DNA of 51,359 bases from contig CAJXZV010000003.1 of assembly GCA_913063835.1 (NCBI GenBank), positions 1-51,359 of the forward strand. The letters run 5' to 3'. Made by a program: the position numbers and the translations under genes. Positions 27,904-39,785 of the stretch are shown here, piece by piece (position 1 is the stretch's first letter; each line of letters opens with the position of its first letter). This DNA comes from an uncultured Eubacteriales bacterium (GTDB taxonomy: Bacteria > Bacillota > Sulfobacillia > UBA995 > UBA9673). Below the pieces are notes generated by a model. The model had not been told where the DNA came from and did not search any database. It saw nothing but the letters and a program-made list of their open reading frames with translations.

Positions 27904-29982
27904 TTACTTCCGCCCCGCCCCCCGGGCGCCGATGGCCGCGCTGGACACCGCGGGCGGCGCCGGCTCGTAGGCGGCGAACTGCATGGTGTAGGTCCCCCGT
28001 CCCTGGCTCTTGGAACGCAGGTCGGTGGCGTACCCGAACATCTCAGCCAGGGGCACGTGGGCCTTTATCACATGGACCCCGCTCCTCGTCTCCATTCCGT
28101 CGACCCGGCCGCGCCGTGCGTTGATATCGGCCAGGACGTCGCCCATGTACTCCTCGGGGACAAGGACCTCGACCTCCATCACCGGTTCGAGGATGACCGG
28201 GTCGGCCTTGGAGAGGGCCCTGCGCATGGCCATCGACGCGGCCACACGGAAGGCCATCTCGGAGGAGTCCACCTCGTGGTACGAACCGTCGACAAGGGTG
28301 CACGAGACCCCGATGACAGGGTAGCCGGCCAGGACGCCGCTCTCGCACGCCTCCCGGGCACCCTGCTCCACCGCGCCGATGAACTCGGACGGGATGACCC
28401 CGCCCTTGATGGCGCTCTTGAAGACGAAGGGTTCCTCCGACGGTTCGACCTCGAGCCAGACGTGACCGTACTGGCCGTGTCCCCCGGTCTGGCGGACGAA
28501 GCGGCCTTCCGCCCGCGAGCGGCCCCGGATGGCCTCCCTGTAGGCCACTTGGGGACGGCCCACGTTGGCCTTGACGTGGAACTCCCGGAGGAGGCGGTCG
28601 ACGATGATCTCCAGGTGGAGCTCGCCCATGCCGGCGATTATCGTCTGGCCGGTCTCCTCGTCCGTGAAGGCCCGGAAGGTCGGGTCCTCTTCGGTCAGCC
28701 GGTCGAGCGAGGTGGTGAGCTTGTCCTGGTCGGCCTTTGTCTTGGGCTCGATGGCCACCGAGATGACCGGCTCGGCGAAGGTCATCTCCTCGAAGACGAT
28801 GGGCCGGGCTTCGGTGCAGAGGGTGTCTCCGGTCTTTGTCTCCTTGAGCCCGACGATGGCCACGATGTCACCCGTCCGCGCCTCGCCGACTTCTTCCCGG
28901 TGATGGGCGTGCATCCGGAGGATGCGGGAGACGCGCTCCCTCTTCCGCCGCGCGGGGTTGAGAAGGACGCTCCCGGCCTTGATGACCCCGGAATAGACGC
29001 GCACATAGGTCAGACGCCCCACATAGGGGTCTGTCTGGATCTTGAAGGCGAGAGCCGAGGCGGCCTCCTCGTCACTCGGCCTGCGCGACGCCGGCTCGCC
29101 GGTGGACGGGACCCTGCCCTCCACGGCCGGGATGTCGACCGGAGACGGGAGGTAGTCGGTCACGGCGTCAAGGAGGAGCTGGACCCCCTTGTTGCGGTAG
29201 GAGGCCCCGCAGAGGAAAGGCACCAGTTCGACCTCGACGGTGCCGCGCCTAAGGGCCCGGCGGATGAGGTCCGGCGGCACCTCCTTGCCCTCGAGGTACA
29301 GGGCCATGACCTCGTCGTCATGCTCTGCCGCCGCTTCCAGGAGCTTCTCGCGGTACTCGCTGATGAGGCCGGCCATCTCCTCGGGAGGTTCCCTGTCGAC
29401 GAGCCTCGTTCCCAGCTCGTCGGTGTAGTAGACCGCCTTGCCCTCGATCAGGTCGCAGATGCCCCTGAAGCCGTCCTCACACCCTATGGGGAGCTGGACG
29501 ACCACCGGCCGGCAGCCCAACTTCCTGCGGGCCTCCTCGACCACCGCGAGGAAGTCGGCCCCGACGGTGTCCATCTTGTTGACGTAGGCGATGCGCGGGA
29601 CCCGGTACTTGTCGGCCTGACGCCAGACGGTCTCCGACTGGGGCTGGACACCGCCCTTGGCGCAGAAGATGACGACGGCCCCGTCGAGGACCCTGAGCGA
29701 CCTTTCGACCTCGATGGTGAAATCTACGTGCCCTGGCGTATCGATAATGTTGATGCGGAAACCCTTCCAGTCGCACGCGGTGGCGGCGGATGTGATGGTG
29801 ATTCCCCGCTCCTTCTCCTGGACCATCCAGTCCATGGTCGCGGAACCCTCGTGGACCTCCCCCATCCGGTGCACGCGTCCCGTGTAGAACAGGATGCGCT
29901 CGGTGGTGGTCGTCTTCCCGGCGTCGATGTGGGCGACGATACCTATGTTCCGCACCTTTTCAAGGGCGTGCTCTCTAGCCAT
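27904..29982 (-). CDS. fusA: Elongation factor G
   Basis: [63 protein letters not shown]; ATG at 29982 with a GGAGG SD. Confidence 0.99.
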
Positions 29983-30089
29983 CTCTCGCTCGACCTCCCT
30001 TCCGTGACCGGCGTCTTCTCCCGGCGGCAGGCCCGGCCCGCCGGCGACCGATAGCCGGCACCGGGCCGCAGGCCCGGCACCCGACCGTA

Positions 30090-30560
30090 TCACCATCGGT
30101 AGTGGGCGAAGGCCTTGTTGGCCTCGGCCATCCGGTGCGTGTCTTCCTTCTTCTTCACCGCGTTGCCGGTGTTGTTGGCCGCATCGATGAGCTCCGCGGC
30201 CAGCCGTTCGGACATGCTTCTTTCGCCCCGGTTCCGCGCCGAGTCGATGAGCCAGCGCATGGCAAGCGATGACCTGCGTTCAGGCCGCACCTCGACCGGC
30301 ACCTGGTACGTGGCACCGCCGACCCTCCTCGACTTGACCTCGAGGACGGGGGCCACGTTCTTCAGGGCCATCTGGAAGACCTCGATGGGGTCCTTGCCCG
30401 TCCTCTCCCGGATGATGTCCAAGGCCGTGTAGACGATCTTCCGGGCCAGAGACTTGTGCCCGGCGTACATTATCTTGTTCGTGAACCGGGCCAAGGCTTC
30501 ATTGCCGTAGACCGGGTCGGGCTCGATTTTCCGGCGCGGCGCCCTGCCGCGTCTTGGCAC
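30090..30560 (-). CDS. rpsG: 30S ribosomal protein S7
   Basis: MPRRG...[18 protein letters not shown]...[15 protein letters not shown]. Confidence 0.99.
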
Positions 30561-30581
30561 TGTGCTCCCCCCTGCCTCACG

Positions 30582-30956
30582 TCACTTCTTCGGTCGCTTC
30601 GTCCCGTACTTGGACCGCCCGCGCTTGCGGCCCTCGACCCCGGCGGCATCCAGTGTTCCCCGGATGATGTGGTACCTGATACCCGGCAGGTCCTTGACGC
30701 GTCCGCCGCGCACCAGGACCACGGAGTGCTCCTGGAGGTTGTGCCCCTCACCGGGGATGTAGGCGCTGACCTCCTCGCCGTTGGTCAGGCGCACCCGTGC
30801 CACCTTCCGCAGAGCCGAGTTGGGCTTCTTCGGCTGCATGGTCTTCACGACCGTGCAGACGCCCCGCTTCTGAGGGTTGCCGCGCAGGGCGGGCGATTTC
30901 GACTTCTCCCGCTTGCGGGCTCTCCCCTTACGGATCAACTGGCTTATCGTCGGCAA
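30582..30956 (-). CDS. rpsL: 30S ribosomal protein S12
   Basis: (M)[11 protein letters not shown]...[16 protein letters not shown]...GGRVKDLPG; TTG start at 30956 after GGAGG. Confidence 0.99.
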
Positions 30957-30974
30957 CGAAACACCTCCCAAGAG

Positions 30975-31017
30975 AACAAAAAGGACCTTCAATCAACTCT
31001 TCAGTTGTCAGCGCCCT
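30975..31017 (-). terminator. Terminator/attenuator-like hairpin containing a putative kink-turn, between L7Ae and rpsL
   Basis: RNA AGGGC(G)CU-GA-CAACU-GAAG-AGUUG-AUU-GA-AGGUCCU-UUUUGUU: 5-bp C stem, 3-nt bulge, tandem G.A/A.G pairs, 7-bp outer stem, U tract. Confidence 0.55.
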
Positions 31018-31036
31018 AGCTGGTCAGGCCTCCTTG

Positions 31037-31291
31037 CTAGTCCTCGAGCACGGCCGCGGAGGCCGCCCCGACCTGGATCCCGCAGGCTTGCCCTAGCCTC
31101 GCCATGGAGTCGGCGTAGACAACCTCGACGTTCTTCTCTTCGCAGAGCCTCAGGAGCTCCCGCACCACGCGCTCTTCGGCGTCGCGGGCGACGTAGACAA
31201 CCTTCACCTGGTCCTTCTGGAGCGCCTTCAGCGTCTGCTTTGTCCCCACAGTCTTAGCCTTGGCCCCGGTAAGCCTCTCATAGAGCGACAC
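31037..31291 (-). CDS. L7Ae family K-turn-binding protein (YbxF/RplGB-like)
   Basis: VGTKQTLKAL....VKVVYVARDAE...MARLGQACGIQVGAASAA; canonical position between rpoC and rpsL. Confidence 0.93.
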   Translation of the reverse strand: MSLYERLTGAKAKTVGTKQTLKALQKDQVKVVYVARDAEERVVRELLRLCEEKNVEVVYADSMARLGQACGIQVGAASAAVLED

Positions 31292-31346
31292 TGAGTCGTT
31301 CCCCCTGAGCTGGAATAACCGGGTCAAGCCAGACAAACACTCACCT

Positions 31347-31375
31347 ATTCTAGCACCCGGTCCTGAAAGTGTCAA
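31347..31375 (-). promoter_or_regulatory. sigmaA-type promoter of the L7Ae-rpsL-rpsG-fusA-tuf (str) operon
   Basis: TTGACA-N17-TAGAAT with an extended -10 TG. Confidence 0.8.
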
Positions 31376-31411
31376 TGCAAAGGCCGCCTGCCGCGTCCCC
31401 GGGCTGTCCGG

Positions 31412-34400
31412 CTAGTCGTCGGCCCGAGACCTTTCAGCCTCCGGAGCCGCGGAAGCCCCGGGCCCGGCCGGCGAACGGTCCTCCACCTGCCCCTCACCGG
31501 GGAGGGAGACGTCTACTTCTTCGCTCCGGGCTTCCACGTCCCCGTCCTCAGCCGGCGGCTCCCCGGCCGCAGGGCCGTCCCCGACGACGCCCTCACCCGG
31601 AGCGGCCCCCTCGCCCGGCGGCTGCGCCTCGGCCTCCTCGGGTCCAGGCGCCTCGACGTCCTCCGGCAGGAGCACCTCCGCCTCTTCCTCTTCCTCCTCC
31701 TCAAGCTCCTCGCAGGTGATGCGGATGTTGCGGTAGCAGCTCATCCCGGTGCCCGCCGGAATGAGCTTCCCGATGATGACGTTCTCCTTGAGGCCCAGCA
31801 GACGGTCCCTCTTGCCCTTTATCGCCGCGTCGGTGAGGACGCGGGTCGTCTCCTGGAAGGACGCCGCGGACAGGAAGGATTCCGTCGCCAAGGCGGCCTT
31901 GGTGATGCCCATGAGCACCGGCTTGGCCGATGCGGGCTTGCCCCCCTCGGCCAGGACCTTCTCGTTGGCCTCCTCGAAGTCGAAACGCTCCACCAGACCG
32001 CCCGGCAGGAGGTCCGTGTCCCCGGGGTCCTCGACCTTGACCTTGCGCAGCATCTGCCGGATCACGGTCTCGATGTGCTTGTCGTTGATGTCGACACCCT
32101 GCATCCGGTAGACCTTCTGGACCTCACGGAGGAGGTGGAGCTGGACATCCCGCGTCCCCTTGATCTTGAGGATGTCGTGCGGGTTGACCGGTCCCTCGGT
32201 CAGTCTGTCCCCTGCCTCGACCTCCTGCCCGTCATGGACGATCAGCCGTGCCGTGTAAGGGACGACATAGGTGGCCGTCTCCCCGTCGGCGGCCGTGACC
32301 ATGATCTCACGCCGCCCGCGGCTGTCGGAAATCTGGACGGTACCGGAGATCTCGCTGATGACGGCCTGCCCCTTGGGCTTGCGGGCCTCGAAGAGCTCCT
32401 CGACCCTCGGGAGACCATGAGTGATGTCCTCTCCGGCGACACCGCCGGTGTGGAAGGTCCTCATCGTGAGCTGGGTCCCCGGCTCGCCGATGGACTGGGC
32501 GGCGATTATGCCCACGGCCTCCCCGGCGTTGACGATCCTGCCCGTGGCCAGGTCACGGCCGTAGCAGAGACTGCACACGCCGTGCTTGGTGCGGCAGGTG
32601 AGGACCGACCGGATCTCGACTTTCCGGATGCCGGCTTCGATGATCCTGTCGGCCAGCTCCTCGGTTATCTCCTCGTCAGCCGTCACCAGGACCTCGTCGG
32701 TCTCAGGGTGCCTGATGTCCTCGAGGGCGACCCGGCCCACAATGCGGGACCTGAAGTCCTCGATGACCTCGGCGCCGTCCCGAATCTCGGCGACCGGTAT
32801 GCCCAGGGTCGTCCCGCAGTCCCACTCTCTGACGATGACGTCCTGGCAGACATCCACCAGGCGCCGGGTGAGATACCCGGAGTCTGCCGTCCGCAGGGCG
32901 GTGTCGGCAAGGCCCTTGCGCGTGCCGTGGGTGGAGGTGAAGTACTCGAGGACGGTCAGCCCCTCGCGGAAGTTGGCCCTGACGGGGTGCTCTATGATCT
33001 GCCCCGCCGGGTCGGCCATCAGGCCCCGCATCCCGGCCAACTGGGAGATCTGGCTCACGTTGCCCCGCGCCCCCGAATGGGCCATCATGTAGACCGAGTT
33101 GAACTTGTCCGCCTGGAGGCTCTTCATCAGGTTGTTGGTGACCGTGTCCTTGGCCTGGTTCCAGATCTCGATGACCTTGCGGCGGCGCTCCTCGTTGGTG
33201 ATGAGGCCCCGGCGGAACTGCTGCTCCACGTTCGCGACCTTCTCGTCGGCCTCGGCCAGTATCTCCTCCTTGGAGATGGGGACCTGGAGGTCGGAGAGGG
33301 CTATGGTCGTCCCGGCCCGGGTGGCGTAGGCGAACCCGAGGTCCTTGATCCTGTCGAGCATGGCCGCCGTCGTAGCCTGGCCGCAGATGCGGTAGCACTT
33401 GGCCACGATGTCGGCCAGGACGTCGCGGTCGACCTCCTCATTGACGAACCTGAGGGGCTCGGGCAGACTGTCATTGAAGATGACACGGCCGACGGTGGTC
33501 CGGAGGAGCTCACCGTCGTACTTCACCAGGATCGGCTGGTGGAGCCTCAGCATCCCCAACTGGTAGGCCATGATGGCCTCGTCAGGGCCTGAATAGGCCT
33601 TGAGCCCCGCCTTCCGGCGGTCTTCCGGAGCGGCCTCCCCGCCCTCGGCGGCGCCCTCCTCCGCCTGTCCGGCGCCGGCTCCGGCACCGGCGCCGGCACC
33701 CTCGTCTTCTCCGTCCGGGGCCCGCTCGTCGCTCTCAATGGTCAGGTAGTAGATACCGAGGACCATGTCCTTGCTGGGCGAAACGACCGGAGTCCCGTCC
33801 TTCGGGCTCAGGAGGTTGTTGGCCGAGAGCATGAGGACCCTCGCCTCAGCCTGAGCCTCGGAGGAGAGAGGCACGTGAACGGCCATCTGGTCCCCGTCGA
33901 AGTCGGCGTTGTAGGCGGTGCAGACAAGGGGGTGGACCTTGATGGCCCGCCCCTCCACGAGGACGGGTTCGAAGGCCTGGATGCCCAGGCGGTGGAGGGT
34001 GGGCGCACGGTTGAGGAGGACGGGGTGCTCCTTGATGACCTCCTCGAGGATGTCCCACACCTCGGGACGCATCCGCTCGACCATCCGCTTGGCGCTCTTT
34101 ATGTTATGGGCGTACCCCAGGTTGACCAGCCTCTTCATCACGAAGGGCTTGAAGAGCTCCAGGGCCATCTCCTTGGGGAGGCCGCACTGGTGCAGCTTCA
34201 GCTCCGGCCCGATGACGATGACCGAACGGCCGGAGTAGTCGACCCGCTTCCCGAGCAGGTTCTGCCGGAAACGTCCCTGCTTGCCCTTCAGCATGTCGCT
34301 GAGGGATCTCAGCGGCCGGTTGCCCGGGCCGGTGACCGGCCGTCCGCGGCGGCCGTTGTCGATGAGGGCGTCAACAGCCTCCTGGAGCATCCGCTTCTCG

Positions 34401-35248
34401 TTCCGGACGATGATGTCCGGCGCCCCGAGGTCGAGGAGCCTCTTGAGACGGTTGTTCCGGTTGATGACCCGTCGGTAGAGGTCGTTGAGGTCGGAGGTGG
34501 CGAACCGGCCGCCGTCGAGTTGGACCATCGGTCTGAGGTCGGGCGGGATGACCGGTATGTACCTGAGGATCATCCACTCCGGGCGGTTGCCGGACTTGCG
34601 GAAGGCCTCGACGACCTCCAAGCGGCGGGTGGCCCGGGTCTTGCGCTGTCCGGAGGCCTGCCTTATCTCGGCCCGGAGCTCCCTGGCCATCTGGTCCAGG
34701 TCTATCTGCTCGAGGAGCTCGAGCACCGCCTCAGCGCCCATCCCGGCCTTGAAGGACTGGCCGAACTTCTCCCTGGCTTCGCGGTACTCCACCTCTGTCA
34801 GCACTTGCCGGGGGCTGAGAGTGGTCTCACCCGGGTCCGTGACGATGTAGGCGGCGAAGTAGAGGACCTTTTCCAGCGCCCGCGGTGAGATGTCGAGAAG
34901 GAGGCCCATCCGGCTCGGGATACCCTTGAAGTACCAGATGTGCGAGACGGGCGCGGCGAGCTTGATGTGCCCCATCCTTTCGCGGCGCACCTTGGACCGC
35001 GTCACCTCGACCCCGCAGCGGTCGCACACGATGCCCTTATAGCGGATCCTCTTGTACTTGCCGCAGTGGCACTCCCAGTCGCGCTGCGGCCCGAAGATGC
35101 GCTCGCAGAACAGGCCGTCGCGTTCAGGCTTCAGGGTTCGGTAGTTGATGGTCTCAGGCTTCTTGACCTCTCCCCGCGACCACTCGACGATCTGCTCGGG
35201 TGACGCCAGACCGATCTTCAGGGAGTCGAAGTTGTTCACGTCAAGCAC
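31412..35248 (-). CDS. rpoC: RNA polymerase beta' subunit
   Basis: [32 protein letters not shown] catalytic motif, [20 protein letters not shown]. Confidence 0.99.
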
Positions 35249-39096: not shown

Positions 39097-39276
39097 GCCG
39101 TGGCTCTCCTCCCGCACGGAAAGACTCGGGACCCCCGGAACTCGGGTCAGGGGTATCCCTGGGCCATGGGTGACATGCAGGGACCTCTGTTGTAAGGAAT
39201 AAGCTTAGTGTTACCCTCCGGAGGGAGTACGATACATAGAATTCCTTCTCCTGCCCGCTGCAATAAGCAAGTTACT

Positions 39277-39305
39277 AGTGTAACACGACCCCCTTTGTTT
39301 GTCAA
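39277..39305 (-). promoter_or_regulatory. sigmaA-type promoter of rpoBC
   Basis: TTGACA-N17-TACACT with an extended -10 TG, about 180 nt upstream of rpoB. Confidence 0.75.
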
Positions 39306-39341
39306 AAGCAAATCCCGAAAATCCGTTGCCCGCAACAAGGC

Positions 39342-39375
39342 GGCGAAGGGGGGCTTCGGAGGGCCCCCCTTCGCC
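39342..39375 (-). terminator. GC-rich hairpin after rplL (probable terminator)
   Basis: 13-bp inverted repeat GGCGAAGGGGGGC...GCCCCCCTTCGCC; the U tract is weak. Confidence 0.6.
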
Positions 39376-39401
39376 CGCTGTGGGTCCGGTCGGCCTGAGT
39401 T

Positions 39402-39785
39402 CTACTTTATCTCGACGCTGGCACCCTGCTCTTCCAGCTTGGCCTTTATGGACTCGGCCTCTTCCTTGGAGACCTTTTCCTTCACCGGCTTCGGCGCCCC
39501 GTCGACCAGGTCCTTGGCCTCCTTGAGGCCGAGGCCGGTGATCTCCCGGACGGCCTTGATGACCTGGATCTTCTTGTCCCCGGCGGACTTGAGAATGACG
39601 TCGAACTCGCTCTTCTCCTCCTCGGCCGCCGCGGCGCCGGCCGCCGGAGCGGCGGCCGCGGGTGCGACGGCAACCGGAGCCGCCGCCGAGACCCCGAACT
39701 CCTCCTCGAGGGCCTTGACGAGCTGGGAGAGTTCAAGGACGGTCAGGCCCTTCACGGCCTCGATAATCTCATCGACTTTCGACAC
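39402..39785 (-). CDS. rplL: 50S ribosomal protein L7/L12
   Basis: [21 protein letters not shown]...EFDVIL...[24 protein letters not shown]. Confidence 0.99.

Follow-up and report, generated by a model that had tools for sequence, protein, structure and literature searches.

A narrowly conserved candidate attenuator between a YbxF/L7Ae-like gene and rpsL in an uncultured lineage of Bacillota

The present analysis concerns a stretch of 51,359 nucleotides (hereafter, the window) from contig CAJXZV010000003.1 of assembly GCA_913063835.1, which belongs to an uncultured Eubacteriales bacterium, and within it the 80-nt spacer that separates a small gene encoding a YbxF/L7Ae-like protein from rpsL, the gene for ribosomal protein S12. 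A preliminary description of this DNA, made from its letters alone, proposed that the transcript of the spacer adopts a kink-turn (K-turn) which is sensed by the L7Ae-family protein and thereby controls the ribosomal protein and elongation factor genes that follow. The outline of that proposal has held up, in that the spacer carries a conserved RNA-level element with a U tract ahead of rpsL and without an intervening promoter-like site, but its central component, the L7Ae-sensed K-turn, has not. The conserved leader element is real and is probably a leaky attenuator; sensing of L7Ae by this element is unsupported.

Genes and transcription signals at the locus

All genes and features around the spacer lie on the minus strand, in the order rpoB, rpoC (31412..35248), the L7Ae-like gene, rpsL, rpsG, fusA, tuf, rpsJ, rplC, rplD, rplW and rplB. 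The features that matter for the argument are the following.

31347..31375, minus strand: sigma-70-type promoter-like site, TTGACA-17-TAGAAT with TG (11 of 12 hexamer matches)
31292..31346, minus strand: conserved 5' leader of the L7Ae-like gene, about 55 nt, comprising AGUGUUUG, a short GC hairpin and a U-rich stretch (alignment, nine of nine family loci)
31037..31291, minus strand: YbxF/L7Ae-like (OapC-like) gene, 84 aa, with a GTG start and a TAG stop at 31039-31037
30957..31036, minus strand: L7Ae-like/rpsL spacer, 80 nt (from the sequence)
31018..31030, minus strand: upstream imperfect copy GGCCUGACCAGCU, an alternative partner of the 3' strand of the fold discussed below (from the sequence)
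30964..30969, minus strand: Shine-Dalgarno (SD) sequence of rpsL, GGGAGG (from the sequence; GGAGGUG is invariant in alignment A1, described below)
30582..30956, minus strand: rpsL, with a TTG start at 30956-30954 (NCBIfam TIGR00981, 222.9 bits, residues 1-124 of 124)

The 84-aa protein matches Pfam PF01248 at 56.3 bits (cut-off 22.1); among NCBIfam models PRK13602, 'L7ae-like protein', scores best, with 101.7 bits, short of the cut-off of 113, and the protein aligns over its full length with the solved chains 3v7e and 4lck of Bacillus subtilis YbxF (E = 2e-17). The gene was found in 39 of the 41 genomes of a class sample, and at all 30 loci retrieved from this sample it is followed by rpsL. 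An N-terminally extended S12 initiated from the TTG at 30992 was dismissed, as MPTISQL comes after the SD at 30956.

The promoter-like site is situated 56 nt upstream of the GTG of the L7Ae-like gene and is the only such site in the region 30000-32000. Its -35 and extended -10 elements are kept in all nine aligned family loci, and the presumed transcription start was placed from the -10 element. The conserved leader behind it yielded zero Rfam matches at E <= 10 and, in a descriptor scan of the nine family loci, no K-turn-like match at any of them; it could represent a second regulatory element of the operon. The U tract of the spacer consists of a T5 run (30982-30978) followed by GUU, with 8 nt from the end of the run to the SD of rpsL. 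Given this short gap, and given that the scan of 30000-32000 detected no promoter-like site between the U tract and rpsL, it follows that rpsL and the genes behind it are transcribed through the element.

Two conserved blocks and a variable patch

The family of the window is represented, in the genomes of the class sample and in metagenome contigs together, by only eight distinct spacer sequences, which make up alignment A1: the window, L002 from the same genus, L003, L004, L034, L031, L032 (the same as L033) and L036. A ninth family locus, L035, with 74% protein identity, is missing both of the blocks described here. Across the loci of the class the spacer ranges in length from 4 to 176 nt and is unalignable beyond the window's own family. 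Within A1, a variable patch is enclosed by two conserved blocks, which are given here together with the parts of the putative K-turn, namely its canonical (C) and noncanonical (NC) helices, that fall within them.

30998..31016, minus strand: block A, consensus AGGCGNCGACAACYKAAGAG, holding the 5' GA, the 5' arm of the NC helix and the 5' arm of the C helix (A1 columns 50-71)
30989..30997, minus strand: variable patch, holding the 3' arm of the C helix, the AUU bulge and the 3' GA (A1 columns 72-81)
30972..30988, minus strand: block B, consensus AAG(G)UCY-U5-7-GKUCU, holding the 3' arm of the NC helix and the U tract (A1 columns 82-99)

When the window is compared with the other genera, block A is identical at 15-16 of 19 positions (13 of 22 in L031, which has an indel), block B at 12-14 of 18 and the variable patch at 3-4 of 9-10. 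Four-fold sites of the flanking genes are saturated between the same genera, with 33-59% identity. Blocks A and B are thus far more conserved than four-fold sites, which indicates that the element is under selection, and the patch, the identity of which resembles that of four-fold sites, is neutral-like. The sequence and this pattern of conservation are established. In a search of 210 genomes of the class, the block pattern occurred beside rpsL exclusively in family f1, in four of its five genomes including that of the window (G000); the remaining one, G002 (81% complete), contained neither a match to the L7Ae-like gene nor the block motif. Seven further matches to the pattern are located away from rpsL, and a reversed-pattern control produced five.

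Closer comparisons are possible within the genus. Of the 80 spacer bases, 3 are changed in L002 relative to the window, every one of them within 30991-30994, with four-fold changes at 4 of 90 sites, and a contig from run X6 has A30993 and U30995 changed, among 15 differences in 576 bases overall. Three nearly identical strains thus carry three versions of the segment 30991-30995 (minus strand), the window having UGAUU, L002 UUCUC and the run-X6 contig CGCUU, and they agree in the remainder of the spacer and at almost all four-fold sites. On this sequence comparison, the patch at 30991-30995 looks as if it evolves faster than neutral within the genus.

The U tract as part of a candidate attenuator

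A tract of five to seven U residues is present in all eight distinct family sequences, and in all eight a helix closing on this tract is predicted, at -6.5 to -16.9 kcal/mol. Runs of at least five T residues are rare in this 2.3-Mb genome with its 69% GC, there being 180 on both strands together, seven of which fall within the window. Established on the same footing as the conservation are this rarity and the lack of a promoter-like site downstream; termination, its leakiness and any ligand are what we infer. The predicted helices differ between members of the family. In the sub-lineage of L004, L034, L032 and L036 the partner of the variable patch is the 5' part of block A, which leaves block A in a loop of 15-18 nt, and three pairs of this patch/block A helix show compensatory changes (RNAalifold, five sequences); the partner of the patch in the window and in L031 is CAACU. 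To judge from these predicted folds, what has been retained is a hairpin of some sort ahead of the U tract and not any particular fold.

Of 65 distinct spacers with a length of 60 nt or more at other Bacillota loci, 31 likewise have a hairpin followed by a U tract between the L7Ae-like gene and rpsL, a count that has no shuffle control and about half of which comes from one Tepidanaerobacter-like group. Tepidanaerobacter and its relatives (L037-L040, L045-L052, L079, L098, L103-L106, L111-L112, L115 and L117) possess a near-identical canonical terminator directly after the stop codon of the L7Ae-like gene, AAGAUGCCCC...GGGGCAUCUU followed by U6-9, and an AT-rich spacer then precedes rpsL; in this group the small L7Ae-like gene looks like a separate transcription unit.

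We propose, with a confidence that amounts to about an even chance, that the spacer of the window is a family-specific, leaky rpsL-leader attenuator, composed of an irregular hairpin that ends at the conserved U tract. Transcription would start at the conserved promoter before the YbxF/L7Ae-like gene, in which case this gene, lying downstream of the start, sits inside the leader of the str operon. A fraction of the polymerases would then stop at the U tract, which would act as a leaky intrinsic terminator or attenuator, and the mRNA level of the YbxF-like gene could in this way be uncoupled from that of S12, S7, elongation factors G and Tu (EF-G and EF-Tu) and the genes behind them. The loop of block A would probably serve a factor, or an alternative pairing, that tunes termination.

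Several observations weigh against such an attenuator. The hairpins are weak and irregular, with energies no better than those of shuffled sequences (z from +0.92 to -1.75), and in a genome-wide calibration of terminators, the crude gene calls behind which covered 77% of the genome, a closing helix of -10 kcal/mol or lower was predicted at 48% of 400 random positions versus 33% of the 180 runs of at least five T. The best hairpin of L032 and of L036 stops 4-6 nt short of the U tract, and RNAalifold, applied to five sequences, draws a small hairpin whose loop contains the U tract. Moreover, GGUCU after the U tract is conserved as well, which would be superfluous for a plain terminator, and the one clear terminator-like hairpin among those inspected, after rplL, is of another style, with a 13-bp GC stem and a poor U tail. 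No convincing antiterminator was recognized, either by eye or in the predicted folds.

Other functions that might be assigned to parts of the spacer were considered and rejected. As a long-range partner of block A, the hexamer GUUGUC in the L7Ae-like open reading frame (ORF) is found at the position examined in only four of the eight block-bearing loci, being missing in L031, L004, L034 and L032. Block A as a -35 element lacks a suitably spaced -10 element, and a small ORF behind the SD-like AAGGAGG that follows the L7Ae-like stop has no start codon.

The predicted fold and the kink-turn core

The fold that gave rise to the K-turn proposal exists in the sense that the RNA of the spacer 30957..31036 can pair exactly as described when its sequence is examined and folded with ViennaRNA. 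The NC helix is formed by AGGGCGCU (31017-31010) with AGGUCCU (30988-30982), giving seven pairs with G31012 bulged, so that from the GA dinucleotides outward there are two pairs, the bulged G and five pairs. The GA at 31009-31008 lies opposite the GA at 30990-30989; the C helix pairs CAACU (31007-31003) with AGUUG (30998-30994) around a GAAG loop, and the 3-nt bulge is AUU (30993-30991). The layout stands as it was first given, apart from the trivial point that the fold begins 19 nt, and not 18, after the stop codon. This pairing is the minimum free energy (MFE) structure predicted by ViennaRNA for a 91-nt stretch (-27.7 kcal/mol), an ordinary value (z = -0.26; 76 of 200 shuffles fold as well or better). 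The upstream imperfect copy, which had been suggested as an alternative partner of the 3' strand, is indeed used as such in the MFE of the 86-nt stretch from stop to start (-23.7) and also takes part in the best helix that abuts the U tract (-14.6 kcal/mol); in the family alignment it is limited to the window sequence and L002. The novelty of the element with respect to Rfam is borne out, since no known family matches the spacer: in release 15 only five tRNAs reach the gathering score in the window, and nothing reaches E <= 10 in 30850-31450.

The comparison with relatives undermines the reading of this fold as an L7Ae sensor: the core is not conserved, the C helix is broken within the genus, L7Ae-rpsL spacers show no enrichment of K-turns, and the patch with one arm of the C helix, the bulge and the 3' GA is neutral or faster. 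The preliminary description had itself made conservation of the tandem GA pairs and of the bulge a point on which the idea would turn, and neither is conserved. Thus, the 3' GA is present in three of the eight A1 sequences, the remaining five having YAAG, and in L031 a 3-nt bulge is missing from this register. All eight sequences keep the 5' GA, but it belongs to block A. The pairs that flank the G.A pairs on the NC side occur in two of the eight sequences, and the -1b.-1n pair (C31007-G30994 in the window) is kept in one of eight. When the whole structure is laid over A1, 65.6% of cells are paired versus 62.6% in shuffles; the outer GGC/GUC pairs of the NC helix, being invariant, are uninformative. 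Within the genus, C-helix pairs are broken by G30994U in L002 and by U30995C in the run-X6 contig, in both cases with no compensation on the 5' arm.

The same conclusion emerges from descriptor searches. A K-turn descriptor (C helix of at least 3 bp, NC helix of at least 2 bp) is matched at this position at one of nine family loci, and the six loci of the other sub-lineage have zero matches, also after relaxing the non-bulged strand to accept AA. A second descriptor, which fits the element and asks for a C helix of at least 5 bp, a 3-nt bulge, GA/GA, an NC helix of at least 2 bp and a loop of 3-12 nt, is matched 10 times in the window, both strands counted, compared to 8.1 +/- 2.9 in ten dinucleotide shuffles, with a chance expectation of about 0.006-0.008 per 80 nt on one strand. 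Because matches occur at the level of shuffled sequence, the motif is a low-information pattern, and the only unusual aspect of it is its position beside an L7Ae-family gene. To place that position in a broader context, 141 loci from Bacillota were surveyed, 132 of which have both genes, providing 98 distinct L7Ae-rpsL spacers; at three stringencies these contain 27 K-turn-like matches against an expected 23.5 +/- 3.5, 14 against 11.2 +/- 2.6 and 6 against 5.6 +/- 1.9. K-turn-like patterns in L7Ae-rpsL spacers are therefore at chance level. Alternative registers, one with a bulge on the 5' strand and AA opposite, as in OLE RNA, and one using the GA of the SD, were rejected; they are not conserved and lack an NC helix. 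Two K-turn-like matches (C helix of at least 4 bp, NC helix of at least 2 bp) also occur inside the L7Ae-like ORF, at 31100-31190 (minus strand), in the window and L002 only; they are not kept in the other seven family loci and are probably due to chance. As far as the aligned sequences allow a judgment, the K-turn spelled out in the spacer is most likely a by-product of a freely evolving patch that pairs with block A and not a selected protein sensor.

OLE RNA as a likely target of the YbxF/OapC-like protein

The genome of the window encodes a full-length OLE RNA (RF01071, 464 bits, model positions 1-616) at C70:7479-8096 on the plus strand (locus L142:1501-2118), and OLE RNA was detected in four of five relatives searched, namely G001, G003, G004 and G005, and not in G002 (81% complete). 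Halalkalibacterium halodurans YbxF, renamed OapC, is reported to bind the K-turn of OLE RNA, a contact needed for function, and single changes that destabilize the C helix weakened or abolished this binding (PMC9723947). Since the genome carries OLE RNA, a known K-turn target of the YbxF family is very likely present here, and the co-occurrence of the RNA with a YbxF/OapC-like gene suggests that this lineage of uncultured Bacillota has an OLE ribonucleoprotein (RNP); the co-occurrence is of use for annotation in its own right. The earlier remark that the RNA target of bacterial YbxF is poorly defined is, in the light of the OLE K-turn reported in PMC9723947 and the OLE RNA found here, partly outdated.

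The bulged strands of the two motifs are alike: the spacer reads UUG-AUU-GA-AGGUCCU, and the K-turn region of the organism's own OLE RNA, mapped via positions 84, 85 and 144 named in PMC9723947, reads AUC-GAU-GA-AGUUCCU. Mimicry of OLE RNA by the spacer was nevertheless rejected, as an unbiased local alignment of the two scored 16 against 17.3 +/- 2.3, with 401 of 500 shuffles scoring as high. The likeness of the bulged strands is the single hint that we retain in favor of a YbxF-bound K-turn in the spacer. In G005, where both OLE RNA and the YbxF-like gene are present, the L7Ae-rpsL spacer is only 17 nt long.

Alternative explanations

The proposal that the YbxF/OapC-like protein, in this species or genus, binds a K-turn in its own transcript, stabilizes a weak terminator and feeds back on the downstream genes draws on several features of the window. 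Its sequence fits the K-turn consensus on paper; the 3b.3n pair of the putative K-turn is a Watson-Crick A-U, which according to rule 1 of PMC5061560 predicts folding only upon binding of protein; the 84-aa protein is a full-length YbxF homologue; the bulged strand resembles that of the organism's own OLE K-turn; and a terminator helix as weak as this one would need assistance. All of this has to be set against the loss of the flanking pairs, of the -1b.-1n pair and of the 3' GA in most of the family (2/8, 1/8 and 3/8 retained), the single family locus that matches the descriptor with none among the six of the other sub-lineage, the 98 spacers without enrichment, the insignificant alignment with OLE RNA and the 17-nt spacer of G005. 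Furthermore, the changes -1b G to U in L002 and -2b U to C in the run-X6 contig are uncompensated, and the equivalent break in OLE RNA impaired YbxF binding (PMC9723947). With the comparative data against it, such feedback would seem very unlikely from the sequences at hand. Were it true, it would give bacterial YbxF/OapC a regulatory role and link the biology of the OLE RNP with ribosome synthesis. Conceivably, an rpsL-leader attenuator could recently have gained at the level of the species a protein-dependent K-turn with an OLE-like bulged strand that is clamped by YbxF/OapC, a variant that we regard as highly improbable. In that event, YbxF/OapC that is free of OLE RNA and ribosomes would clamp the weak terminator helix and so reduce transcription of the genes for S12, S7, EF-G, EF-Tu and the downstream ribosomal proteins; this would be the first bacterial L7Ae-family riboregulator, and the window, L002 and run-X6 variants would be natural alleles of differing strength.

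A more serious competitor, albeit one that we still hold to be unlikely, is a leader that acts without termination, in which blocks A and B would be recognized by a protein, ribosomal or not, or would govern RNA processing or stability, and would thereby affect the translation of rpsL or the half-life of its mRNA, and the U tract would be a single-stranded platform or a hairpin loop. The covarying hairpin that presents block A in a 15-18-nt loop in four sequences is a common way of displaying protein sites, and the conserved GGUCU, the predicted hairpin with the U tract in its loop and the poor energies of the hairpins as terminators point in the same direction. On the other hand, the distance between the U tract and the SD ranges from about 8 to more than 50 nt, so the element is no fixed part of the ribosome-binding site, and the hairpin that displays block A is missing in the window's own sub-lineage. 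Mimicry of rRNA likewise finds no support: the eight family spacers, compared with the 16S and 23S rRNA of a class relative under three scoring schemes, show no significant similarity (z from -1.4 to +0.6), and where four of the spacers do align with 16S positions 269-294, the match is no better than chance. A search of G000, G003 and G005 for rRNA genes returned none. The remaining explanation is that the signal acts at the level of DNA, as an operator-like inverted repeat AAGUCC-T6-GGUCUU, or has no function, for instance if the blocks merely reflect low divergence. In five of eight sequences block B does flank the T tract as an imperfect inverted repeat (read by eye, with the same pairs in RNAalifold), but the repeat contains a conserved mismatch, is poor in the window itself and has no linked regulator gene, and lack of function is hard to reconcile with four-fold sites that are saturated (33-59%) while the blocks are kept. 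We accordingly assign this explanation a very small probability.

Relationship to known leader elements

With termination at the U tract as the favored reading, the closest parallels are the premature terminators described upstream of rpsL in distant phyla, which are reported to share no common sequence or structure and to have an unsettled ligand, S7 or others (Naville & Gautheret 2010, PMC2965389, where earlier predictions by Merino & Yanofsky are cited). Like the rpsL-leaders of PMC2965389, the spacer has a predicted hairpin and a T stretch just upstream of rpsL in an rpsL-rpsG-fusA-tuf operon, and in both cases sequence and structure are specific to a lineage. Unlike those leaders as presented in PMC2965389, it is separated from its promoter by the whole YbxF/L7Ae-like gene, its hairpin is irregular and weak, two blocks of its sequence are kept within one uncultured Bacillota family, and no antiterminator was found. 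The element is thus most likely a narrowly distributed new version of an already described class of rpsL-leader attenuators, and its two conserved blocks could help to find the ligand of this poorly understood leader. The initial statement that no such element had been described consequently holds for the K-turn, as our search of the literature encountered no bacterial L7Ae/YbxF-sensing K-turn element at rpsL, but not for an rpsL-leader attenuator (PMC2965389).

Comparison with established K-turns illustrates how far the resemblance goes. In archaea, L7Ae represses translation of the l7ae mRNA via a K-turn in its 5' untranslated region (Daume et al. 2017, PMC5539422), so that there, as here, an L7Ae-family protein and a K-turn-shaped motif are found in one transcript; unlike the archaeal site, the motif of the window follows the ORF and lacks conservation, and none of the nine 5' leaders of the family has one. 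The K-turn of OLE RNA involves the same protein family and a similar strand, NNN-GA-AG(G/U)UCCU; it is, however, conserved, experimentally bound and has AA on the non-bulged strand (PMC9723947), in contrast to the unconserved motif of the spacer. With standard K-turns such as Kt-7, box C/D and U4 (PMC5061560) the putative K-turn of the window shares a C and an NC helix, a bulge of 3 nt and a GA on either strand, and its Watson-Crick 3b.3n pair is of the kind seen in protein-dependent K-turns (PMC5061560). It departs from them in the G that bulges out of its NC helix beyond the first two pairs, and the motif shows neither covariation nor conservation. The locus is a clear case of how a consensus K-turn beside an L7Ae-family gene can arise by chance.

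The leader of the Escherichia coli S10 operon is subject to L4-mediated attenuation, in which a protein of the operon strengthens the leader terminator. The logic is like that of the originally proposed feedback, and given that protein, RNA and phylum all differ, the parallel is an analogy only.

Other features of the gene cluster

Two further intergenic regions on the minus strand contain promoter-like sequences. The rplL-rpoB spacer (39120-39404) has a 13-bp GC-rich hairpin directly after the rplL stop, followed by a promoter-like TTGACA-17-TACACT with TG (39305..39277) and then by an rpoB leader of about 160 nt. For fusA, the listed ORF spans 27904-30096 and its match to EF-G begins only at residue 39; hence translation probably starts about 110 nt further downstream than listed, which leaves a rpsG-fusA spacer. 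A weak promoter-like sequence, TTGAAA-16-TATCGT (29963..29936), is located in this presumed spacer.

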